A stretch of 42,590 nucleotides of DNA, from the IMG/VR virus record IMGVR_UViG_3300033273_000098, positions 1-42,590 of that record; one strand, written 5' to 3'. Origin of the DNA: a virus. Positions 2,730-42,590 of the stretch are shown here, in pieces. Under the pieces are notes generated by a model. It did not search any database and had not been told where the DNA came from. It saw only the letters and a list, made by a program, of their open reading frames with translations. Numbering within the stretch: position 1 is the first letter of the stretch; every line of letters starts with the position of its first letter. The position numbers and the translations under genes were made by a program.

Positions 2730-3683
2730 ATGGCCTACATTGGTTCAGCCCCTACCTCAGTTGTGTCTCGAGACTCCGCAAAGGTTTACCGATACACGGC
2801 GACAGCAGGTCAAACTGTTTTCTCTGGTGCAGATGCAGACAACCAGATCCTTGATGTCACCCCTAGTGACACCAGGGTGCATATCAATGGTTTGCTACTA
2901 GAGCCATCAGACTACAACTTGACGAACTCGAGTGTCACTTTGACAACCGCAGCGTCAGGTGGTGATGAACTGACTGTCACTGGGTTCCAAACCTTTGAGG
3001 TCGCAGACACATACACCAAGGCGACTTCGGATTCACGCTATGTGAACACCACTGGTGATACGATTAGCGGCACCCTGGTTGTAGACGGAAGTTTCTCTGT
3101 ATCTCGAGGCTCAAGCCATTCTAATACCTACGAAGGTGGTCGTGTGACACTGAAGAATGGCAGCGGCTACACGAAGCAGTATGGCCTTGACACCTATTAT
3201 GAGAACTTCCGCATCTTTAGGGAAAACGCAGATGGTACAGGTGGTGCGGTAAGGTTTGAGATTGACAGCGCAGGGCGTGTGACTATGCCGTATCAACCAT
3301 CGTTTCAAGCATACAGAGCAACGACGGGATACGCCGTCTACAATGCAGGTGATGTAGTCATATGGCCTGATACGAATTACAACGTAGGAAATTGCTACAA
3401 TACGACAACAGGTAGATTTACGGCACCCATAGCGGGCCTCTACATGTTTTATGCTTACATTTACCAAGCATCGAGCAGCTACTCACGGTGGACCTTGCGA
3501 ATTAACGGTGGTCAAGCCTTTGCGGGGCAAGGTGGTATCCATCAGTCAGGCGATCAATGTACTGTGGCGGCTGCGCATAAACTCGCGGCTGGCGATTATG
3601 TTACAATGTCCTCTAGCTATGCAGGGCAGACACTATTTCACGACAGAGATCACTCCGCAATGGGCGGCTACCTAATAGGATAA
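2730..3683 (+). CDS. Tail fibre with shared N-terminal anchor domain and C1q-like C-terminal head
   Basis: 317 aa. The N-terminus MAYIGSAP...FEVADTYTKATSDSRY is paralogous to the 42299 gene. The C-terminus carries QPSFQAY, YNTTTGRFTAPIAGLYMF, AAGDYV and GGYLIG, which match gC1q hallmarks. Confidence 0.75.
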   Translation: MAYIGSAPTSVVSRDSAKVYRYTATAGQTVFSGADADNQILDVTPSDTRVHINGLLLEPSDYNLTNSSVTLTTAASGGDELTVTGFQTFEVADTYTKATSDSRYVNTTGDTISGTLVVDGSFSVSRGSSHSNTYEGGRVTLKNGSGYTKQYGLDTYYENFRIFRENADGTGGAVRFEIDSAGRVTMPYQPSFQAYRATTGYAVYNAGDVVIWPDTNYNVGNCYNTTTGRFTAPIAGLYMFYAYIYQASSSYSRWTLRINGGQAFAGQGGIHQSGDQCTVAAAHKLAAGDYVTMSSSYAGQTLFHDRDHSAMGGYLIG

Positions 3684-3695
3684 GGATACACACAC

Positions 3696-4388
3696 ATGAG
3701 TAACGCACGTAACTTATCCAAAGGTTTGATCGAGGGTCGCTTCGAGGTCAATCATTCAGAGAACTCAGCATCAGCATTCCCAAGTGGTGACTGGGCAGCT
3801 AAAGTTTACAACCAGTTCGACGCACCTAACGAGGGTGGTCTTGTTGTTGCCAATCGTTGGGAGGCAAGTGCATCTAGTGCATTTCTTGTGGGTGGTCTGC
3901 ATGATGGTGGCGATGGTTTTAACGAGTATCTAAAGGTTGACGGCATTGGTCACGTAACGATGCCTAAACAACCAGCGTTTTGGGCATATAATGTAACAGG
4001 ATCAAGTACACAGACTTCGGGTACAATCACATTCCCTCAAACGGATATAAATACTGGTAATCACTACAATACCTCTACAGGTAGATTTACAGCACCTATA
4101 TCTGGCGTTTATGAGTTTAATGTTATGGTTTTGCACAGGATGGTGAATGTCGGCGGTGCCGCTGAAATTACCCTTCTCCTTAACGGAGCAAATGTTAGTA
4201 GTCGTGGTCTAGCTTACTCTGGGGGAAGCTCTGGTCAGGGCGATTTGCATATTCCACAACATATAACGTACCGAAGATCATTGAGTGCAGGTGACTACGT
4301 TCAGCCTTACATACACGCAATGGGAGGTGGTCAGGACTTCTATTTACATAGTCGTCTATCTTACTTCACAGGACGCTTAATCGGATAG
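3696..4388 (+). CDS. C1q-like head-domain fibre protein
   Basis: 230 aa with GHVTMPKQPAFWAY, HYNTSTGRFTAPISGVYEF, SAGDYV and a terminal FTGRLIG. It is paralogous to 2730 and 41657. Confidence 0.7.
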   Translation: MSNARNLSKGLIEGRFEVNHSENSASAFPSGDWAAKVYNQFDAPNEGGLVVANRWEASASSAFLVGGLHDGGDGFNEYLKVDGIGHVTMPKQPAFWAYNVTGSSTQTSGTITFPQTDINTGNHYNTSTGRFTAPISGVYEFNVMVLHRMVNVGGAAEITLLLNGANVSSRGLAYSGGSSGQGDLHIPQHITYRRSLSAGDYVQPYIHAMGGGQDFYLHSRLSYFTGRLIG

Positions 4389-5459: not shown

Positions 5460-5818
5460 TCACCAGGGTCATCCTGGTCGTCATGAGTTTTACACTAGCA
5501 TCCTGTGGTTCGATCCCCTTCCTATTCAGTGGTGGGGGTGGGCCCTCAGTCACAACTGTCGGAACACAGCTGGCTAAGGAAGCGAACCAGCAAGTCGTAA
5601 ACGACCAGTCCAACATCAGGACAGAAGACGGCGACATCGAGGTCACTGAGCTGCAAGACACAGTCACGACCCGAGACGTCGAACGTATCAACATCAAGAA
5701 CACTGACATCCCGCCCTGGATCATCATTGCACTGATCCTCGGGTGGTTGGCTCCCTCACCAGGTGAGATGGGCAGGGGCCTCATGTCAGCTGTCACCAGC
5801 CTTCGAAGGAGAACATAA
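5456..5818 (+). CDS. Lipoprotein with C-terminal TMD; candidate unimolecular spanin
   Basis: A GTG start overlaps the upstream TGA. The signal peptide MITRVILVVMSFTLA|SC carries a LASC lipobox. A C-terminal TMD IPPWIIIALILGWLAP is followed by a basic tail. It sits between the holin-like and amidase genes. Confidence 0.5.
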   Translation: MITRVILVVMSFTLASCGSIPFLFSGGGGPSVTTVGTQLAKEANQQVVNDQSNIRTEDGDIEVTELQDTVTTRDVERINIKNTDIPPWIIIALILGWLAPSPGEMGRGLMSAVTSLRRRT

Positions 5819-6249
5819 TGCGTCATATAGACGAGATCATTCTACACTGCACAGCCACTCGATCTGACTGGGCGGCAGACCAGAGCACAGACTGGAAGGT
5901 CGCACAGGTCCGCAGCTGGCATAAAAATGGAAATGGCTGGCGCGACATCGGCTACCACTACCTAGTGGATATCGACGGAACAGTGGCAGTAGGTCGACCA
6001 GTGACGCAAACTGGCGCACATACTCGAGGCCACAACAAGGGCACCATCGGTATTGCACTGTTTGGTGGTCATGGATCCACAGCTGACGATGCGTTCTCAG
6101 ACAACTTCACAGATGCACAGTTCAAGGCCGTCGAACAACTGATCGAGGATCTGAAGGCAGACTACCCGATCACTCGTGTCTCAGGACACAACGAATATGC
6201 AAACAAAGCATGTCCTGGATTCAACGTCCCGATTTACTTTCACGACTAA
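5818..6249 (+). CDS. N-acetylmuramoyl-L-alanine amidase (T7 gp3.5 lysozyme-like endolysin)
   Basis: 143 aa. ILHCTAT, WRDIGYHYLVDIDGTVAVGR, GAHTRGHNKGTIGIAL and HNEYANKACPGF align with the conserved blocks of T7 lysozyme. Confidence 0.9.
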   Translation: MRHIDEIILHCTATRSDWAADQSTDWKVAQVRSWHKNGNGWRDIGYHYLVDIDGTVAVGRPVTQTGAHTRGHNKGTIGIALFGGHGSTADDAFSDNFTDAQFKAVEQLIEDLKADYPITRVSGHNEYANKACPGFNVPIYFHD

Positions 6250-6365: not shown

Positions 6366-6385
6366 TCAACAGCCAACTTTGACAA

Positions 6386-6442
6386 CATCGGTCTACATCA
6401 GCATGGCAATCAGCCAGCATCAGAAGTAGATCGGTGTTTTTT
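6386..6442 (+). terminator. Hairpin plus T6 at the end of the late/lysis operon
   Basis: catcggtctac (6386-6396) pairs with gtagatcggtg (6426-6436), giving 11 bp including 2 G-U in RNA. It is followed by tttttt. Confidence 0.5.
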
Positions 6443-6450
6443 GCTCACAC

Positions 6451-6463
6451 TAAGGGTCCCCCT
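6451..6463 (+). promoter_or_regulatory. Candidate phage-RNAP promoter, variant copy (TAAGGGTCCCCCT)
   Basis: It has one mismatch to the motif repeated at 8179, 10683 and 19781. It is intergenic, on the + strand, and directly after the terminator. Confidence 0.5.
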
Positions 6464-6475
6464 TATACAAAAGTG

Positions 6476-6505
6476 TTGACAAGGATGTATCCGTTGACTC
6501 ATAAG
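6476..6505 (+). promoter_or_regulatory. Possible host sigma70-type early promoter
   Basis: TTGACA, an 18-nt spacer, then CATAAG. It lies upstream of the early genes. The -10 element is weak. Confidence 0.25.
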
Positions 6506-6532
6506 GGGGTACGGACGATGCGTCCAGATATC

Positions 6533-6595
6533 GGTGGTTAGAGCAGCGGAATCATAATCCGCGTGTCGGGGGTTCAAGTCCCTCCTCCGCTACCA
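6533..6595 (+). other. tRNA-Met/Ile2(CAT)-like 3' fragment (D-loop GG to CCA); candidate attP core
   Basis: GGTGGTTAGAGC, then anticodon arm gcgga/atCATaa/tccgc, variable loop gtgtc, T arm ggggg/ttcaagt/ccctc, then ctccgct-A-CCA. There is no matching 5' acceptor strand or D-stem upstream. int lies 0.7 kb downstream. Confidence 0.65.
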
Positions 6596-6649
6596 ACCAA
6601 AGATATCATCGGAACAGCATCAGTCCTTAACCATAAGGAGACTGATACG

Positions 6650-6847
6650 ATGACATATATTCACGACGATTACTGGTCCAGACAGTGGCAGCTAGAGGCT
6701 GAGTCAGAAGCCCACTTTATTGAAAAACAGCGTCTTGAGCTACAGAACGCAGCTGGCGTCGATATGCCTAGACTAGACTGCTATTGTTATTATTCCGATT
6801 TCGCTGATTGCATCACGAAAGCACCTGAAACAGAGGTGCCGTTCTAA
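6650..6847 (+). CDS. Early hypothetical protein, acidic
   Basis: 65 aa from the ATG with AAGGAG upstream. The ORF-track start at 6563 would lie inside the tRNA-like segment. Confidence 0.55.
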   Translation: MTYIHDDYWSRQWQLEAESEAHFIEKQRLELQNAAGVDMPRLDCYCYYSDFADCITKAPETEVPF

Positions 6848-7080
6848 TGACTAATATCACACCATATTACACACTGTTTGTTCGCTCACCTGAGACTGGT
6901 GAATGGGAAGATGTCTACGGATCATATGTCCGCAACGACTGCAAAGACCAGTGGCTGTACGAATACAACGGCTACGGCGAGTATACTTCCAAAGATGCCA
7001 AGATCGTCAAGACTGACGGATCCCACGAGGCACTGCTGCGCGTCCACCGCAAATTGAACCCTGACGAGGTGTCAGCATGA
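6847..7080 (+). CDS. Early hypothetical protein
   Basis: 77 aa, with a TAATG start/stop overlap onto the previous gene. Confidence 0.55.
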   Translation: MTNITPYYTLFVRSPETGEWEDVYGSYVRNDCKDQWLYEYNGYGEYTSKDAKIVKTDGSHEALLRVHRKLNPDEVSA

Positions 7081-7163
7081 ACTGGCTCGGAGACCTCATT
7101 GGATGCCTGGCACTGTTTGTCATGCTCTACGTCGGTCTGGGTGCAGCACATGTATTCGGATGA
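7077..7163 (+). CDS. Possible 28-aa hydrophobic peptide
   Basis: ATGA overlap with the upstream stop. The product is MNWLGDLIGCLALFVMLYVGLGAAHVFG. Confidence 0.3.
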   Translation: MNWLGDLIGCLALFVMLYVGLGAAHVFG

Positions 7164-7287
7164 CGATCTAGACGACTTCCTTAGGCAGCTGTTTCCACCG
7201 TTGCCTAAGCCGACCAGGGAAGAACCTGACTACCGCGATCACGTCCCCTGGAAACCATCACACACTGGCGAAGAGCCACCGTTCTAA
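7150..7287 (+). CDS. Possible 45-aa early protein
   Basis: Internal ATG of ORF 7099..7287. The product MYSDDDLDDFLRQLFPP... is acidic and Pro-rich. Confidence 0.3.
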   Translation: MYSDDDLDDFLRQLFPPLPKPTREEPDYRDHVPWKPSHTGEEPPF

Positions 7288-7301: not shown

Positions 7302-8129
7302 ATGAACTTCATCGACTTTGTAAACACCGAGGGTCCTAACATCTGGCGCGACAAGCACCTAGCAGAGAGCCGCACTAAGATGCACCGCTTTGGCGAGTTT
7401 GGCGGCGTAGGTTTCAAAGAGATCTCAGAGATCACAGCCCGTGACATCCACGCATTCAGCCTACACCTTTTGGACCAGGGCCTAACCGTAAATACTGTCA
7501 ATCACTACAAGGCTGCTATCAGTGCAATCCTGAAGCATGCGCTGGATCTCGATGAGATCGAAAAGCTACCCAAAATTAAGTTTGCGAAAGTGCGGACTAA
7601 CCGTGTACGCTACATGTCTCACGACGAGATCGAGAAGCTAGACACATTCCTACGTGACTACAAAGGTGGCAGCTACTGGTGGATGCGCCACATGTGCACC
7701 ATTGCTTTGAACACAGGCATGCGTCATGGCGAGATCCTATCGATCACACCAGACATGGTGACCATCGAAGGTGACATGTGCACAGTGCACTTGACCAACA
7801 CCAAGAACGGCGATGACCGCGACGTAGTATGCGCTGGGAAGACCTTTGCAGCCATCATGGCCCTAGAGTTCGAACCAGGTAAATACTACAGCCACCGCAA
7901 GTTCTATAACACCTGGGATGAGGCACGTTATCGTATTGCCAAGGGTGACAAAGAGTTTGTCTTCCACATCCTACGTCACACAGCAGCCACCAAGATGGCT
8001 AACGAGCTAAAGCTACCTACGGTTACCGTAGCCCAGCAATTGGGCCATCGTAGCCTTCAGACGACTGCTAAGTACGTGCATCAGACACCTGAAACACGTG
8101 CAGAGATTGCCAAGCTAATGGGGTCCTAA
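7302..8129 (+). CDS. int: Tyrosine recombinase / phage integrase
   Basis: 275 aa. It has ALNTGMRHGEIL (Arg I), HILRHTAAT (H-x-x-R) and LGHRSLQTTAKYVH (His/Tyr nucleophile region). Confidence 0.9.
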   Translation: MNFIDFVNTEGPNIWRDKHLAESRTKMHRFGEFGGVGFKEISEITARDIHAFSLHLLDQGLTVNTVNHYKAAISAILKHALDLDEIEKLPKIKFAKVRTNRVRYMSHDEIEKLDTFLRDYKGGSYWWMRHMCTIALNTGMRHGEILSITPDMVTIEGDMCTVHLTNTKNGDDRDVVCAGKTFAAIMALEFEPGKYYSHRKFYNTWDEARYRIAKGDKEFVFHILRHTAATKMANELKLPTVTVAQQLGHRSLQTTAKYVHQTPETRAEIAKLMGS

Positions 8130-8178
8130 AGGCCCCTTTCGCACCTAAAAACGACACTAATAATATCAATGGGTTAAC

Positions 8179-8191
8179 TAAGGGACCCCCT
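8179..8191 (+). promoter_or_regulatory. Candidate phage-RNAP promoter (TAAGGGACCCCCT)
   Basis: Intergenic between int and the RNAP gene. It shares AAGGGACCCCCTCAGAA (17 nt) with the copy at 10683. Confidence 0.55.
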
Positions 8192-8216: not shown

Positions 8217-10679
8217 ATGACTATAGGGGTACTTCAGACACAGTCTGATCTCGAGCAGCAAATGATCCAAAGAGGTCAAGAGAGATACAAAAAGAGACAA
8301 GAGAAACTAGCACCGAGCCAACGTGAGATCCCGCACCAGGTGCTAACCGATGCCCTACCCAAGGTGTCTAAAGCTATCAAAGAGGCACTTGAAGAGGACG
8401 CGAAACGCTTCCACTCTGGCCTTGGCAAAAAGAGCCTGTGGTACGAGGAGCTAATTGATCAAGACACAGACACCCTAGCCTACTTAGGTCTGAACTCTTG
8501 CTACGAAAGCGTGATGATGCAGGGTACTCTAGCTGGCTGTCTGATCACTATAGGATCTAGGGTCGAACTAGAGTGCTGGGCTGAAGATCTACGTGCGTAT
8601 GATGACACACTGTTCAAACGCCTGGTCAAACAGGTGACCCGAGATCACTCCAGTGAACGCTATCGGCTCAAGGCCGCACGTATCATAGCCACCAAAGCTG
8701 GCTTCAAGTTTGATAAGTGGTCAAGGTCGATGAAGGTGAATATCGCTAGTCCGATCCTGAATGCTGTCTTGGAACACTCAGAGATATTCGATGTCGCCAC
8801 AGTAGAAGAGAACCTGAAGACACATCGGACCTTATGTCTGACTGATGCAGCTGAAGGTCTCATCCGTCAGCGCATGTTTGACGCAAGCTGGGCCGAGCCA
8901 GCCTTTGGTCCACTTATAGTTCCACCAAAGCCCTGGACTGCCTTCGACAGCGGTGTCTATGAAAACGAGATGTTGTCGACCCTGGTACCTATGATCCGTA
9001 GGACCACCACAGAGCAGCGGAGAGCCATCGAGAGAGACTTTGAGAGAGAACCTGAGCCTCTATATGTCAAAGCTATAAACGCGCTCCAGGACACCCCTCT
9101 GCGGATCAACAAGCGCGTCTTGGATGTCTTGGATTGGTGCGTCAGTGAAAAGCTCAGGTTCGGTAAGTTTCCAGAGCTGGAACCACCGATCTTTCCTAAG
9201 CTACCTGAAGACTTCGAGGATCTACCTGAGAAGCAGCAACGGCAGCTGAAGAAGGACCAAAAGGATTGGCACGTGAAGAGACGTGAGTCAGTTGCCAACC
9301 TGGTTGTCATGGATGATGACCTGAAGTCGGCTTTTAAGATGGCTGAGTATGATCGCTTCTGGATTGGCTGGAGCTTTGACTTCAGAGGGCGCATGTACCC
9401 TGTCAGCCATTTCAACTACCACCGTGATGACCACATCAAGGCACTCTTTGAGTTTGCTAGAGGTCGACCAGTGGCTGAAGAGGACAGAGGTTGGCTTGCG
9501 ATCCACCTGGCTAACGTCGGTGACTTCAAGAAGATCTCCAAGGCATCTCTGGATGATCGGATCCAGTGGGTCATGGACAATGAGGAGTGGTTGCGTCAGG
9601 TCAATGACGACCCCAAGTCCACCTTCGATCTGTGGACCCAAGCTGACAAACCGTTCCAGTTCCTGGCGGCTGTCTTTGCCTACTTTAGCGACGACCCTGT
9701 GTGTCACCTTCCAGTTTCCCTGGATGGAACTAACAGTGGCGTCCAGCACTATGCCCTGGCACTTCGGTCATCTGAGGACGGTCACATGGTTAACCTGGTG
9801 CCAGACGATAAGTGCCAGGACGTCTACCAGACCGTGGCTAACCAGGTGATCCAGGATCTGACTGAGGATGGATCTGAGGAAGCAGTCAAATGGCTCGACT
9901 ACGGCATCACTAGATCCACGGTCAAACGTAATGTCATGACCTATGGGTACAGCAGCGTCGAGCGTGGGTTTGGCGATCAGATCATCGAAGATCTCATGCA
10001 GCCGCTACAAAAGGACGTCAACTATGGGACGATCCCCGAGCACCCGTTCGGTGACGTCAGAGACCAGGAGAAGTACGCCAGGTTTCTAGCCAAGTTCAAC
10101 TACCAGGCAGTGCAGAAGGTCATCTCTAGTGTGGCCCAGGGCATGGACTTCTTACAGTCATATGCTGACGCCCTGGCTCGTGAAGGTAAGTCAGTTCGGT
10201 GGACAACACCCAGTGGTTTCCCAGCGGTCCAAAGGTACACCAAACCTGACGTCAAACGAGTGAAGATCTTCCTATATGACCGAGAGGCCAAGCTACGGAA
10301 ACAGACCAGGGTCACGCTACACAGTGACGGACCCACGTACGACACCAGGAAGGCAAGAGCTGGCATAGCCCCCAACTTCGTGCATTCCCTGGACTCAGCT
10401 CACATGCAGTTGGCTATCGTGCACGGTCTCGAGCAGGGCATCGAGGACTTCTTTATGATCCACGATAGTTTTGGTACGGCTGCTGGTCAGACCTGGTCAT
10501 TCTACCACTGCATCCGTCACGCGATTGTCGACATGTACGAGGACAACTGTGTTCTGGGCAACTTCGAGATCGAGTGTCGTAACCGTCTGGCTAACCCAGA
10601 CATGGACCTAGCACAGGTCCCACAGAAGGGCACATTAGATGTCCGAGCAGTCCTGGACAGCGAATATTGCTTTAGCTGA
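8217..10679 (+). CDS. T7-like single-subunit DNA-dependent RNA polymerase
   Basis: 820 aa. DGTNSGVQHYA, IAPNFVHSLDSAHM, MIHDSFGT and the C-terminal ...SEYCFS correspond to T7 gp1 DGSCSGIQH, APNFVHSQD, IHDSFGT and the ...FAFA foot. Confidence 0.95.
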   Translation: MTIGVLQTQSDLEQQMIQRGQERYKKRQEKLAPSQREIPHQVLTDALPKVSKAIKEALEEDAKRFHSGLGKKSLWYEELIDQDTDTLAYLGLNSCYESVMMQGTLAGCLITIGSRVELECWAEDLRAYDDTLFKRLVKQVTRDHSSERYRLKAARIIATKAGFKFDKWSRSMKVNIASPILNAVLEHSEIFDVATVEENLKTHRTLCLTDAAEGLIRQRMFDASWAEPAFGPLIVPPKPWTAFDSGVYENEMLSTLVPMIRRTTTEQRRAIERDFEREPEPLYVKAINALQDTPLRINKRVLDVLDWCVSEKLRFGKFPELEPPIFPKLPEDFEDLPEKQQRQLKKDQKDWHVKRRESVANLVVMDDDLKSAFKMAEYDRFWIGWSFDFRGRMYPVSHFNYHRDDHIKALFEFARGRPVAEEDRGWLAIHLANVGDFKKISKASLDDRIQWVMDNEEWLRQVNDDPKSTFDLWTQADKPFQFLAAVFAYFSDDPVCHLPVSLDGTNSGVQHYALALRSSEDGHMVNLVPDDKCQDVYQTVANQVIQDLTEDGSEEAVKWLDYGITRSTVKRNVMTYGYSSVERGFGDQIIEDLMQPLQKDVNYGTIPEHPFGDVRDQEKYARFLAKFNYQAVQKVISSVAQGMDFLQSYADALAREGKSVRWTTPSGFPAVQRYTKPDVKRVKIFLYDREAKLRKQTRVTLHSDGPTYDTRKARAGIAPNFVHSLDSAHMQLAIVHGLEQGIEDFFMIHDSFGTAAGQTWSFYHCIRHAIVDMYEDNCVLGNFEIECRNRLANPDMDLAQVPQKGTLDVRAVLDSEYCFS

Positions 10680-10682
10680 ACC

Positions 10683-10694
10683 AAGGGACCCCCT
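10683..10694 (+). promoter_or_regulatory. Candidate phage-RNAP promoter (AAGGGACCCCCT)
   Basis: Intergenic between the RNAP and SSB genes, in the same orientation as the other copies. Confidence 0.55.
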
Positions 10695-19684: not shown

Positions 19685-19759
19685 GCTTACGCTTCCTAGT
19701 ATACCTCAGCTCACCATCTGTGGTTGGTGCTTACGCTTCCTAGTATACCTCAGCTCACC
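19685..19759 (+). repeat. Two identical 31-bp direct repeats (GCTTACGCTTCCTAGTATACCTCAGCTCACC), 44-bp period
   Basis: Copies at 19685-19715 and 19729-19759 are identical. The second copy ends 21 nt upstream of the promoter motif at 19781. Confidence 0.9.
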
Positions 19760-19780
19760 CCAGTAAACTAAAGTGGGTAC

Positions 19781-19793
19781 TAAGGGACCCCCT
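19781..19793 (+). promoter_or_regulatory. Candidate phage-RNAP promoter (TAAGGGACCCCCT) heading the late region
   Basis: It is an exact copy of the motif at 8179. It lies in the 1.2 kb intergenic region upstream of all structural genes. Confidence 0.55.
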
Positions 19794-19869: not shown

Positions 19870-19951
19870 CATCACAGGTCACCGAGCACCAGTGTACCTA
19901 TGTGGACTCCTCCCAGCCACTGAGGACAACACAGGACGGTGACCTGTGATG
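19870..19951 (+). repeat. 14-bp perfect inverted repeat (catcacaggtcacc / ggtgacctgtgatg) with a 54-nt spacer
   Basis: The arms lie at 19870-19883 and 19938-19951. The 3' arm contains the GTG/ATG start of ORF 19946/19949. Confidence 0.85.
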
Positions 19952-20209
19952 ACATATAGAGAAAGACATCAGATCATGACACAACAGCATGGCTTACGCC
20001 AGCAACAGACAAACATCAGCTCCAAGCTCATGTTTGGCTTAGGTCAAGCTGGTGCTGACTGGAAGTGGACTAGTGATACCACCACCACTGTCAATGACAT
20101 AGAAGCTGATGACCAGGTAACCGAAGACCAAGAGCACCCAAAGACAACTGATGATGACCTAAGTACACTTGAAGAGATCTATCAGTACTACTGGGAAGAA
20201 CTCAGGTAA
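19949..20209 (+). CDS. Hypothetical acidic protein (first ORF after the late promoter)
   Basis: 86 aa with a weak RBS. It is the only sizeable + strand ORF in the intergenic hub. Confidence 0.4.
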   Translation: MTYRERHQIMTQQHGLRQQQTNISSKLMFGLGQAGADWKWTSDTTTTVNDIEADDQVTEDQEHPKTTDDDLSTLEEIYQYYWEELR

Positions 20210-20271: not shown

Positions 20272-20381
20272 TGATGATGATGACTGATGATGACTGATGT
20301 CTGACTGAGGTCTGACTGATGTCTGACTGATGTCTGACTGATGTCTGACTGATGTCTGACTGATGATGACTGATGTCTGAC
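20272..20381. repeat. Tandem array of 10 units of 10-13 bp (core TGATGTCTGAC)
   Basis: Unit boundaries were read off directly, with five exact TGATGTCTGAC copies. The + strand carries TGA in all frames. The - strand is open and yields repeat-driven ORFs. Confidence 0.9.
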
Positions 20382-20649
20382 TTGGGTTGGCTTCAGGTCC
20401 CGATTTGTCTTGAAGAAAACCAAGGCCCATCCAGACAACACAGACCCGCAAGCGCGGCTAATGTCCTAATGTCCGTCATTTGGTCAACGGATAGTGTATC
20501 CGATGACATCAGAAACCCAACGATTACAGCGACTTAGCTATTGTCGATCAATGGATCTAATGAAATCAATGTCAATCACGGGACTCCTGGTCGACTTTCG
20601 ACACCCCCGTGCGCTCGTCAATCAATCGATTTCAAAAAGGCGTTAAACA

Positions 20650-20673
20650 GTTGTCGTTGTTGTTGTTGTTGTC
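20650..20673. repeat. Trinucleotide run (GTT/GTC)x8
   Basis: The sequence gttgtcgttgttgttgttgttgtc was read directly. Confidence 0.9.
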
Positions 20674-20714
20674 AGGCCTCTCGAAGCAGAGCCCCAGCCC
20701 CACAAAAAGCGAAA

Positions 20715-20732
20715 ACAAAAGTAAGGAACCCA
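20715..20732 (+). promoter_or_regulatory. Conserved 18-nt leader ACAAAAGTAAGGAACCCA, copy 2
   Basis: Identical to 2710-2727. It ends 4 nt upstream of ATGGCC (20737). Confidence 0.4.
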
Positions 20733-20736
20733 AGCC

Positions 20737-21222
20737 ATGGCCTTAGAGACTGGCATTTACATCGATAGTCTGAATGCAGCGAACCCTGCGTCGACTGATG
20801 GCCTTGGTCAGGCTGACGACCACCTACGACTACTCAAAAGCACCATCAAGGCAACACTGCCGAACCTGACTGGCGCGGTCACAGCTGACCAAAGCGAACT
20901 GAACGTCCTCGATGGTATCACAGCTGACACAACTGAGCTGAACCTTTTGGATGGTGCCACAGTATCGACAACCGAACTGAACTATGTGACTGGCGTCACC
21001 TCAGGTATCCAGGCCCAGATCGACACAAAGGCCCCCAGCGCATCCCCCACGCTGACTGGAACCACCACAGTGTCCACAGTCGCCTTAGGTGCCTTCACGA
21101 TCTCCCAGGGATCCGATGGTCGCCTGGACTTCAAGGTTGGTACCACGACTGTCATGTCGATTGACCAGTCAGGTAACCTGCGTGTCCGTGCTGACATCAG
21201 TGCATTCGACACCTCAGCATAA
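20737..21222 (+). CDS. Tail-fibre-like structural protein with ELNxLDG repeats
   Basis: 161 aa. The N-terminus reads GIYIDSLNAANPASTDGLGQADDHLRLLKSTIKATLPNLTGAV. This is followed by SELNVLDGIT, TELNLLDGAT and TELNYVTGVT, a pattern seen at the N-termini of many phage fibre proteins. Confidence 0.6.
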   Translation: MALETGIYIDSLNAANPASTDGLGQADDHLRLLKSTIKATLPNLTGAVTADQSELNVLDGITADTTELNLLDGATVSTTELNYVTGVTSGIQAQIDTKAPSASPTLTGTTTVSTVALGAFTISQGSDGRLDFKVGTTTVMSIDQSGNLRVRADISAFDTSA

Positions 21223-40113: not shown

Positions 40114-41310
40114 ATGAGTGCCAAGTCTAGTTTCTATGCAATTGCTGGACGCGAAGTTACTGAAGTCGACCCAATCACGTCACTTCGAAACGAAGCGGAG
40201 GCAGCACGTGCAGCCGCAGTCCAGGCAAAGAATGAGGCCTTGGCATCACAGCAAGCTGCCCAGGATAGTGAAAACAATGCGGCAACCAGTGAGGCCAATG
40301 CCGCCGCTAGTGCATCAGCTGCAAACACGTCAGCTGTCGCAGCGTCCAACGCAGCCGCCAACATCAGTACATCCACAGCAGCAGCCGCAGCCGCCCAGGC
40401 AGCAGCCGAGACTGCACGTGATGATGCCCAGGCTGCACGTCTAGGTGCTGAGACCGCAGAGACCGCCGCTGAAACAGCTCAGACAGCCGCTGAGGCCGCT
40501 CAGACAGCAGCGGAAACAGCTGAGACGAATGCTGAGACGGCAGAGACCAATGCAGCGTCCTCAGCCACCGCAGCGTCCGCTAGTGAGACAGCAGCAGCTG
40601 CAAGCGAGACTGCCGCAGCAGGTAGTGCCACAGCAGCAGCTGGATCTGCCACAGCAGCCGCCACCTCTGAAGCAAATGCAGCAGCGTCACAGACAGCAGC
40701 AGCTGCAAGTCAAACAGCAGCCGCTACGTCAGAAACCAACGCTGCAACTTCAGCTACTAATGCTGCTACCTCAGAGACCAACGCAGCAACGTCAGCAACT
40801 AACGCTGCTACCTCTGAGACCAATGCAGCCACGTCAGCTGCAAACGCAGCAGCAGCAGAAACCAATGCGACCACAAGCGCGACTAATGCTGCGACGTCAG
40901 CAACCAATGCCGCCGCAAGTGAAACAGCAGCAGCTGGGTCAGCGACAGCAGCCGCGACCAGTGAAACAAACGCTACGACAGCAGCAACTAACGCCGCTAC
41001 GTCAGAGACCAACGCAGCAACTTCAGAGACGAATGCCGCCTCGAGTGCAACAGCTGCGGCAGGGTCAGCAACGACAGCAGCGACTGAGGCAACCAATGCT
41101 GCAACATCTGCAACAGACGCAGCGACGTCAGCAGGTACAGCAGCCACCGATGCAGCAGCAGCAGCCGCGTCAGCAGCGGCAGCGGCAACATCAGAAACTA
41201 ATGCAGCAACATCAGAAGCAAACGCTGCGGCATCAGCAGCCGCTGTGGCATCAGCAGCTCAGACAGCAGCGACAGATGTCTCCGTCGCGATGGCTATCGC
41301 TCTTGGATAA
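40114..41310 (+). CDS. Fibrous tail-fibre shaft protein made of Ser-Glu/Ala-Thr-Asn-Ala-Ala-Thr heptads
   Basis: 398 aa. From about residue 40 to 385 it consists of Ala/Thr/Ser/Glu/Asn 7-residue (21-bp) repeats such as NAATSET NAATSAT. The SETNA motif is familiar from lambda Stf / P2 H-type fibres. Confidence 0.7.
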   Translation: MSAKSSFYAIAGREVTEVDPITSLRNEAEAARAAAVQAKNEALASQQAAQDSENNAATSEANAAASASAANTSAVAASNAAANISTSTAAAAAAQAAAETARDDAQAARLGAETAETAAETAQTAAEAAQTAAETAETNAETAETNAASSATAASASETAAAASETAAAGSATAAAGSATAAATSEANAAASQTAAAASQTAAATSETNAATSATNAATSETNAATSATNAATSETNAATSAANAAAAETNATTSATNAATSATNAAASETAAAGSATAAATSETNATTAATNAATSETNAATSETNAASSATAAAGSATTAATEATNAATSATDAATSAGTAATDAAAAAASAAAAATSETNAATSEANAAASAAAVASAAQTAATDVSVAMAIALG

Positions 41311-42298: not shown

Positions 42299-42590
42299 AT
42301 GGCATACATAGGACATTCCCTTTCTGAAGGGGTACGCCGCGTATATACATATGTGGCTACAGTTAACCAGGACACGTTTAGCGCGGTTTATGGCGTAGGC
42401 GCAGTAGACGTCTACCAGAACGGAGTCCTTCTACCACCCACAGCATACAATGCATCTAGTGGTGGCAGTGTGATCCTCAACGAGCAGTGTGCAGTGGATG
42501 ACGAGGTCACCATTGTCGTACACAACACGTTCGCAGTTGCAGACACATACACCAAAGCAGAGGCAGATAGCCGCTACATTGCGTCAGGCA
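42299..42590 (+). CDS. Tail-fibre protein, 5' part (continues at base 142 of the window; see 3..338)
   Basis: MAYIGHSLSEGVRRVYTYVATVNQDTFSAV... is paralogous to the N-terminus of the 2730 fibre. The frame is open to the end of the window. Confidence 0.8.
   Translation, partial: MAYIGHSLSEGVRRVYTYVATVNQDTFSAVYGVGAVDVYQNGVLLPPTAYNASSGGSVILNEQCAVDDEVTIVVHNTFAVADTYTKAEADSRYIASG
42450..42590. repeat. Terminal overlap copy 2 (identical to 1-141)
   Basis: See the feature at 1-141. Confidence 0.95.

Follow-up and report, generated by a model that had tools for sequence, protein, structure and literature searches.

What is the 3' part of a bacterial tRNA gene doing in front of the integrase gene of a T7-like phage? 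The question is raised by IMG/VR virus record IMGVR_UViG_3300033273_000098, which was analyzed over its full length of 42,590 nucleotides (nt) (here called the window). Positions 6533 to 6595 of the window hold a 63-nt sequence, GGTGGTTAGAGCAGCGGAATCATAATCCGCGTGTCGGGGGTTCAAGTCCCTCCTCCGCTACCA, which an initial annotation, made from the letters alone, had described as a truncated tRNA-Met(CAT) gene lying 0.7 kb upstream of an integrase gene and as a candidate phage attachment site (attP). Based on the structure of the fragment, its identity with host tRNA genes, and its replacement by other tRNA fragments in related phages, we conclude that 6533 to 6595 is very probably the attP core of a complete, circularly assembled T7-like phage genome. 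The two features on which the question turns are as follows.

6533 to 6595, + strand: proposed attP identity block, an exact copy of positions 15 to 77 of an alphaproteobacterial tRNA-Met(CAT), from the D-loop remnant through CCA
7302 to 8129, + strand: tyrosine integrase of 275 amino acids (PF00589, 8.8e-20), with a SAM-like core-binding domain and a catalytic domain

Structure of the fragment and its match to host tRNA genes

All of the tRNA parts named in the initial annotation are present in the letters. The D-loop remnant is followed by an anticodon arm, GCGGA/ATCATAA/TCCGC, with the anticodon CAT, by a 5-nt variable loop, GTGTC, and by a T arm, GGGGG/TTCAAGT/CCCTC. The 3' end consists of the acceptor strand CTCCGCT, the discriminator A, and CCA, and the integrase start lies 707 nt downstream of the fragment, in agreement with the distance given earlier. 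The fragment is not an intact or functional tRNA gene, because the 5' acceptor strand and the D arm that would complete the cloverleaf are absent. ARAGORN calls no tRNA over the window, and Rfam at the gathering threshold gives no match. At a relaxed threshold the Rfam tRNA model matches 6534 to 6585 with 21.5 bits, compared with a gathering score of 29, and covers model positions 7 to 64 only. The missing 5' half, GGCGGAGTAGCTCAG, is absent from the whole window even when up to 3 mismatches are allowed. Neither ARAGORN nor the covariance model thus contradicts the earlier description of the fragment as nonfunctional.

The retained part does have extended exact counterparts in bacteria, where many tRNA(CAT) genes share 47 to 64 nt with it, which is much more than coincidence would produce. 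The inner 47 nt (6546 to 6592) occur exactly in at least 120 species-representative genomes, and among the matches listed nearly all are Alphaproteobacteria. The host gene is 77 nt long and consists of GGCGGAGTAGCTCAG, then G, C, or T, then TGGTTAGAGCA, followed by the 47-mer and CCA. Host genes with this 47-mer are called intact tRNA-Met(cat) by ARAGORN, a label that rests on the anticodon and does not distinguish elongator Met from lysidine-modified Ile2. Where the D loop of the host gene reads AGGTGG, identity with the window extends over all of 6533 to 6595 plus one base, 64 nt in total. Matches of 64 nt were found in Erythrobacter, Paracoccaceae, and Boseongicola, and matches of 63 nt were found in Roseibium and in unclassified metagenome-assembled genomes.

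Replacement of the tRNA fragment in related phages

Strong evidence on the nature of the fragment comes from relatives of the window. Ten IMG/VR contigs with integrases 64 to 90% identical to that of the window carry a tRNA-Met fragment 0.5 to 0.9 kb upstream of int. This fragment starts at tRNA position 15 in 9 of the 10 contigs and at position 22 in the tenth (L191), and the flanks to the left and right of it fall into several unrelated types. In contigs whose integrases are 83 to 84% identical, the same slot holds a 3' fragment of tRNA-Phe(GAA). A search that started from the RNA polymerase (RNAP) instead of the integrase gave 41 further relatives, all 41 of which have an integrase match upstream of RNAP. 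Among these relatives, the slot holds pieces of another variant of tRNA-Met or of tRNA-Cys(GCA), Ser(CGA), Thr(TGT), or Tyr(GTA). A neighbor-joining tree built from the integrases places the Phe clade inside the Met clade to which the window belongs. A host-like block that has diverged flanks and is swapped along the integrase tree indicates an attachment site that belongs to an integration module and not a tRNA gene in decay. The attP candidacy put forward in the initial annotation is therefore strongly supported by comparison.

If the fragment were instead a decaying phage-encoded tRNA pseudogene that has lost its 5' part and has no role in integration, it would have some precedent, since phages do carry tRNA genes. 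In addition, ARAGORN calls a D-arm-less "tRNA-Phe(gaa)" of 73 nt in the Phe-type relative L182 (3112 to 3184). The left flank there consists of CTCAG, a 6-nt insertion, and then TTGGTAGAGC, so that tRNA similarity reaches further 5' than in the other Phe types. However, decay would bring substitutions and not in-register replacement, and the retained part is identical to host genes at 63 of 63 positions while its flanks have diverged freely. The truncation also falls at the same position across lineages whose integrases are only 64 to 90% identical, and six tRNA identities occupy one slot, always as 3' fragments next to int. We consider a pseudogene highly improbable.

Since tRNA repeats are places where assemblers can mis-join, an assembly artifact, or host contamination joined to a phage contig, also had to be considered. 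The lineage recurs in many contigs of the JGI, ENA, Logan, and NCBI assemblies, however, and these independent assemblies agree in both junctions of the fragment. The window itself has an exact 141-nt direct repeat at its ends (1 to 141 and 42450 to 42590), which is most simply a circular-assembly overlap, the genome then being complete at 42,449 bp. Because the window closes by this overlap and has phage genes on both sides of the fragment, the probability of an artifact is negligible.

Probable position of the crossover and proposed integration

The exchange of one tRNA target for another among close integrases suggests where the crossover may lie. The Met and Phe fragments, which accompany integrases about 84% identical, share TAGAGCAGCGGA[N7]TCCGCGTGTCGG, that is, 12 nt flanking the anticodon loop on either side, and the Cys and Ser targets also show CGGA-N7-TCCG. 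In L199 to L202, a 4-nt insertion (AAGG/GAGG) separates the 5' strand of the anticodon stem from the loop, and identity with tRNA-Met begins at about position 29. Over the Met lineages, the left limit of tRNA identity thus ranges from position 15 to about position 29. Because the shortest Met block, that of L199 to L202, starts inside the anticodon stem, the crossover would lie at or 3' of the anticodon loop. These comparisons point to the following core.

6546 to 6562, + strand: putative core, the anticodon stem-loop GCGGA-ATCATAA-TCCGC, placed from the Met/Phe, L199 to L202, and Cys/Ser comparisons

From the symmetry of this sequence, we infer that the stem halves are inverted integrase half-sites and that the 7-nt loop (6551 to 6557) is the strand-exchange overlap. 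Sublocation classes that Williams reportedly set out in 2002 include an anticodon-loop class of integration into tRNA genes (tDNA), to which the core of the window would correspond.

The integrase has the catalytic set R141, K168, H222, R225, H249, and Y258, as judged from its translation and from alignment to the integrase of Tn1549, and is without an N-terminal arm-binding domain. In the proposed mechanism, this 275-amino-acid protein would recombine attP with an alphaproteobacterial tRNA-Met(CAT) gene, with the anticodon stem halves and adjacent bases as inverted binding sites; the strands would most probably be exchanged within the 7-nt anticodon loop or immediately 3' of it. Since the phage copy extends over the entire 3' portion of the gene up to and including CCA, a tRNA identical to the original would be restored at attL upon insertion. 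The attL junction would then read host upstream sequence, regenerated tRNA, the sequence directly to the right of the fragment (called the right arm below), small open reading frames (ORFs), int, and RNAP. The attR junction would read late genes, terminator, promoter or promoters, the sequence directly to the left of the fragment (the left arm), the displaced 3' part of the host tRNA, and host downstream sequence. The crossover position, integration itself, and the frequency of integration are all things that we infer. If it resembles that of T7-like cyanophages, integration may be infrequent and may not lead to stable lysogeny.

Host range indicated by the fragment

Matching of attP to tRNA genes is established practice for host assignment, and caution about host calls made in this way has already been voiced by Mizuno et al. 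(PMC3861242 for both points). The results obtained here are in keeping with that caution. Among the listed matches, the 47-mer occurs in Sphingomonadales, Rhodobacterales, Rhodospirillales, Hyphomicrobiales, SAR116/Puniceispirillales, Holosporales, and other orders. Since the tRNA gene is identical across at least six alphaproteobacterial orders, the claim of the initial annotation that the fragment points to the host holds for the class Alphaproteobacteria and for nothing finer. The match to tRNA genes thus supports a host that is probably alphaproteobacterial, at class level at most. We tried to narrow the host by means of the AGGTGG D-loop variant and the bases beyond CCA, but the matches are scattered over taxa and do not discriminate; the bases past CCA, as CCAACC, were found in Sphingomonas. 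The D-loop variant is uninformative because sequence to the left of the proposed crossover would not be exchanged with the host. A nucleotide search against deposited phages gave generic tRNA-level matches only.

Shorter 3' fragments of the same tRNA-Met, 47 to 50 nt long and starting at the anticodon stem, were seen in contigs of another kind. They occur in L104 (5269 to 5315) and L120 (338 to 384), and further in L121, L125, L130 to L135, L140, L144, L145, L151, L160, and L161. In these genome and viral contigs, the sequences beside the fragment bear no relation to those of the T7-like lineage, and a search for proteins like those of the window gave nothing at an E value of ≤1e-5. We read these contigs as other integrative elements. 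If this is true, different elements share the tRNA-Met gene as an integration hot spot in Alphaproteobacteria.

Search for integrated copies

Several observations weigh against integration by this phage lineage. No integrated copy with a substantial host flank was found, and none of the at least 120 listed genome loci with this tRNA has phage genes like those of the window. Contigs that encode the integrase homologues P0008, P0009, and P0010 all have a free-phage context, with no lysogen among them, and the integrase homologues at an E value of ≤1e-20 are from metagenomic sources in 43 of 43 cases. Beside int, no excisionase, repressor, or MarR-type regulator is recognizable. Finally, the single contig with the structure expected of attL, which is described below, has just 26 nt of nonphage sequence, located at the contig end. 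The search of IMG/VR also gave no lysogen, and the exact integrase protein of the window is not on record.

The attL-like contig was found with a pattern specific for attL (a full tRNA, 1 to 14 nt, and RTCATCGGA). In JGI metagenomes this pattern matched one contig, L196, which is identical to IMG/VR contig L150. On it, a full-length tRNA-Met leads into a right arm, after which come int (72% identical), RNAP, and more T7-like genes. This contig is suggestive of attL and no more than suggestive, because an assembler could have joined it through the shared 63-nt repeat. We regard the absence of lysogens among the listed loci as weak evidence. In pelagiphages, integration was detected by polymerase chain reaction and hybrid reads (10.1101/410191).

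Genome surroundings of the proposed attachment site

The genome has a G+C content of about 51%, and its major ORFs are all on the + strand. The late genes end in an amidase gene (5818 to 6249) and a small ORF, after which come a hairpin with a T run, a conserved motif, a promoter-like site, and the tRNA fragment. The physical T7-like ends are probably near this late terminator/early promoter region, around 6.4 kb. The features in this part of the genome are as follows.

6384 to 6443, + strand: terminator-like hairpin and T run after the amidase gene, closing the late block, with a 13-bp stem that includes G-U pairs (z score, -5.4)
6450 to 6463, + strand: conserved intergenic motif CTAAGGGWCCCCCT, a candidate phage-polymerase promoter
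6476 to 6504, + strand: sigma-70-like early promoter candidate read from the sequence, TTGACA, a 17-nt spacer, and TCATAA, with a weak -10
6619 to 6652, + strand: Shine-Dalgarno hairpin holding AAGGAG (6635 to 6640), ahead of the first early ORF, which starts with ATG at 6650; conserved in relatives
6650 to 6847, 6847 to 7080, and 7099 to 7287, + strand: three small early ORFs between attP and int
8217 to 10679, + strand: T7-like single-subunit RNA polymerase (PF00940), directly downstream of int

A simple terminator scan misses the hairpin at 6384 to 6443, which has a loop of 29 nt; homologous sites with shorter loops in relatives are called terminator-like. Positions 6430 to 6442 were considered as a class II T7-RNAP terminator (ATCTGTT-like), and this candidate was dropped, because the sequence belongs to an ordinary terminator made up of a hairpin and a T run, in which it forms the 3' side of the hairpin and the T run.

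The motif CTAAGGGWCCCCCT is present in four copies, all on the + strand (6450 to 6463, 8178 to 8191, 10681 to 10694, and 19780 to 19793), compared with 0.18 expected. One copy precedes the attP leader, two others flank RNAP, one in front of it and one immediately behind it, and the copy upstream of attP is kept in relatives. Its repetition and placement make the motif a candidate for a phage-polymerase promoter or a processing signal. At the sigma-70-like site, a strict promoter scan calls nothing in the window; in relative L166, the homologous site is called by the scan (TTGTGA-17-TATACT). The position and the -35/-10 spacing of the site are conserved in the listed relatives.

Neither Pfam nor PHROG gives a match for the three small ORFs that separate attP from int. 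From the end of int to the start of RNAP there are 88 nt, and this spacer carries only the CTAAGGGACCCCCT motif and no tRNA fragment. RNAP is followed by a gp2.5-like single-stranded-DNA-binding protein and endonuclease I.

Repeats were also observed elsewhere in the genome. An 11-nt unit, TGACTGATGTC, is repeated in tandem about nine times at 20291 to 20399, between the ORFs at 19946 to 20209 and 20541 to 20768. This array could be iterons, an origin, or a binding array. Just upstream of it is an exact 31-nt direct repeat (19685 to 19715 and 19729 to 19759). A long GCAGC-rich array of 21-nt periodic repeats (40373 to 41270) lies within the ORF at 40114 to 41310 and encodes a protein of 7-residue repeats. 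In the late region, 2730 to 3683 and 3696 to 4388 encode adjacent C1q-domain proteins (PF00386, about 1e-10), which may be tail-fiber or receptor-binding proteins.

A co-varying hairpin around the fragment

The roughly 22 to 35 nt on either side of the tRNA fragment are complementary to each other and form the two arms of a hairpin that encloses it.

6511 to 6532, + strand: left hairpin arm, ACGGACGATGCGTCCAGATATC, which would go to attR on integration
6596 to 6627, + strand: right hairpin arm, ACCAAAGATATCATCGGAACAGCATCAGTCCT, which would stay with int in attL

Positions 6511 to 6532, together with part of the D-loop remnant, pair with 6596 to 6627, and the pairing found by a repeat finder is GATATCGGTGGTT/AACCAAAGATATC. 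In the window, the hairpin has about 23 to 28 pairs. The 132-nt segment from 6504 to 6635 folds with the arms closed at -47.9 kcal/mol (z score, -3.4), and none of 200 shuffled sequences folds as well. The same fold topology was obtained for all 24 of the relatives that were folded, in which the arm sequences are of at least eight unrelated types. The energies of the left-right duplexes range from -19.6 to -37 kcal/mol, with z scores mostly from -3 to -6; for the attL-like contig L150, which has a host left flank, the duplex z score is -0.1.

An alignment-free duplex test was carried out on 16 arm types. Cognate arms pair with a mean of -28.8 kcal/mol, compared with -17.9 kcal/mol for noncognate arms (permutation p < 5e-5). 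Because cognate arms pair better than noncognate arms, we conclude that the arms co-vary between lineages. When RNAalifold was applied to sequences aligned with MAFFT, the tRNA arms were recovered but just the outermost stem of the hairpin arms, since the hairpin arms do not align by sequence. The motifs that are conserved are ACGGACGA(T/C)G in the left arm and TCA(T/A)CGGA followed by CATCAGTCC in the right arm, and the right-arm motif TCATCGGA is conserved in all relatives.

Inverted repeats also bracket attP in cultured pelagiphages. In HTVC105P, 11 of 11 nt are complementary, 139 nt apart (L291, 2144 to 2304), and the repeats in HTVC019P and HTVC121P are 20 nt at 85% (L292, 1641 to 1796) and 14 nt at 93% (L294, 1809 to 1961), respectively. 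In P-SSP7 (L293), the int-RNAP spacer has no flanking inverted repeat of ≥10 nt. In a limited literature check, the pelagiphage (10.1101/410191) and cyanophage (PMC8776855) papers were found to contain no wording about a hairpin, inverted repeat, stem-loop, or palindrome, and a further limited literature search gave no description of a hairpin around attP.

The hairpin raises the possibility that the tRNA fragment is itself a tRNA-like RNA domain in the leader of an early mRNA, either a processing or stability signal or a mimic, with host identity serving recognition at the RNA level. A promoter-like site precedes the fragment, transcription of the region follows the tRNA sense orientation, and the fragment is enclosed by a conserved, co-varying hairpin, all of which would suit such a domain. 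However, mimicry needs no identity at 63 of 63 positions to one host tRNA, and an RNA domain leaves unexplained both the integrase linkage in 41 of 41 relatives and the switching among tRNAs that share anticodon-stem sequence. As a replacement for attP function, an RNA domain is improbable. An RNA role on top of attP function is possible.

With the fragment taken as attP, the function of the enclosing hairpin can be considered separately. We are somewhat inclined to favor an RNA structure, because the region is transcribed in sense and, by our own reasoning, because a cruciform with a 63- to 140-nt spacer is kinetically unlikely. A comparison of the two strands does not separate RNA from DNA pairing of the arms, since pairing was better by only 1.9 kcal/mol on the + strand (p = 0.016, with sequences that are not independent) and the strands have equal numbers of G-U pairs (53 versus 47). 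By analogy with T7 R0.3/R1, candidate RNA roles are an RNase III-type processing site or a stabilizer, and the hairpin possibly insulates the tRNA-like piece from tRNA-processing enzymes. A DNA-level role, for example as accessory sites for an integrase that lacks an arm domain, fits the resemblance of TCATCGGA to the core half-site GCAGCGGA, but we think it unlikely.

With one arm on either side of the core, the hairpin would be split by integration, which would also separate the predicted early promoter from int-RNAP. The Shine-Dalgarno hairpin, ATCAGTCCTTA/TAAGGAGACTGAT (6619 to 6646), is kept in most relatives, and the outer part of the right arm doubles as its 5' half. Because of this shared half, the Shine-Dalgarno hairpin and the attP hairpin compete, and after integration the right arm by itself might sequester the Shine-Dalgarno sequence of the first ORF. 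The predicted unpairedness of the Shine-Dalgarno sequence is, on average, 0.30 in the attP context versus 0.21 in the attL context, with values of 0.77 versus 0.21 for the window, the only case in which the difference is large. An integration-dependent change in Shine-Dalgarno access is thus in the expected direction, but the support for it is weak, and we do not retain it. That the hairpin is an RNA-level sensor of integration state, either a lambda-sib-like retroregulator or an RNase III site around att, we regard as somewhat less likely still than a DNA-level role. If it were true, a sensor hairpin together with disconnection of the promoter would control early expression in a T7-like phage without a recognizable repressor.

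Implications and comparison with known systems

The best identities to deposited phages are 32% for RNAP and 31% for the integrase, the latter to HTVC019P-type pelagiphages. Through the tRNA fragment, an uncultured and widespread T7-like lineage, with an RNAP at most 32% identical to those of deposited phages, is assigned to alphaproteobacterial hosts, and an exact integration locus is predicted for it. The close, small integrases with switched tRNA targets (about 84% identical between the Met and Phe types) should be useful for studying and re-engineering site specificity. The placement of attP between an early promoter and int-RNAP leads to testable hypotheses on how repressor-less T7-like phages behave when integrated. 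Two of these results merit further work, namely the switching of tRNA targets between closely related integrases and the co-varying hairpin that encloses attP.

Classical tDNA integrases are heterobivalent and have an N-terminal arm-binding domain. The proposed site resembles classical anticodon-loop tDNA integration in that a 3' tRNA part from the anticodon region would regenerate the gene and in that a symmetric stem flanks a 7-nt overlap. In contrast, the integrase of the window has core-binding and catalytic domains only, and its crossover is placed by comparison and not by mapping. Lambda sib and the T7 RNase III sites R0.3/R1 are long imperfect RNA hairpins that form in early transcripts, either beside int or ahead of the first early gene, and integration of lambda at att separates the sib hairpin from int. 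The arrangement in the window differs from these, since its arms lie on both sides of the attP core and integration would split the hairpin itself.

The closest known systems are T7-like marine phages. HTVC019P-type pelagiphages (10.1101/410191) are T7-like, have a tyrosine integrase gene immediately upstream of RNAP, and carry a core identical to part of an alphaproteobacterial tRNA; in HTVC105P, HTVC019P, and HTVC121P, attP is bracketed by an inverted repeat of 11 to 20 nt, 116 to 139 nt apart. They differ from the window in that their attP lies between int and RNAP and not upstream of int, and in that their cores are 11 to 46 bp long and often correspond to the 5' end or middle of the tRNA (10.1101/410191), compared with a block of 63 nt in the window. 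A MarR-family regulator precedes their int, whereas none was found in the window; MarR is annotated in HTVC105P, HTVC121P, CRP-125, and P-SSP7. Their hosts are low-GC SAR11, and identity to the window is at most 31% for the integrase and about 30% for RNAP.

The cyanophages P-SSP7 and S-TIP37 (Shitrit et al. 2021, PMC8776855) are similar to the window in having an exact host tRNA match and a tyrosine integrase in an otherwise lytic T7-like genome, and they differ from it in their target, tRNA-Leu, and in an attP that lies downstream of int. Experiments with cyanophages showed that integration needs int and attP, is rare, and does not lead to lysogeny (PMC8776855), which matches the absence of lysogens found for the lineage of the window. 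The precedent cited in the initial annotation is thus sound insofar as T7-like cyanophages and pelagiphages do integrate into tRNA genes (PMC8776855, 10.1101/410191), but it does not extend to the arrangement, since their attP is downstream of int and that of the window is upstream. The combination of an integrase with a tRNA-derived attP in T7-like marine phages is a known class, and the window joins it. Its departures from the described cases are an attP upstream of int and behind an early promoter, a 63-nt block, the lack of a MarR regulator, and membership in a distinct uncultured lineage.

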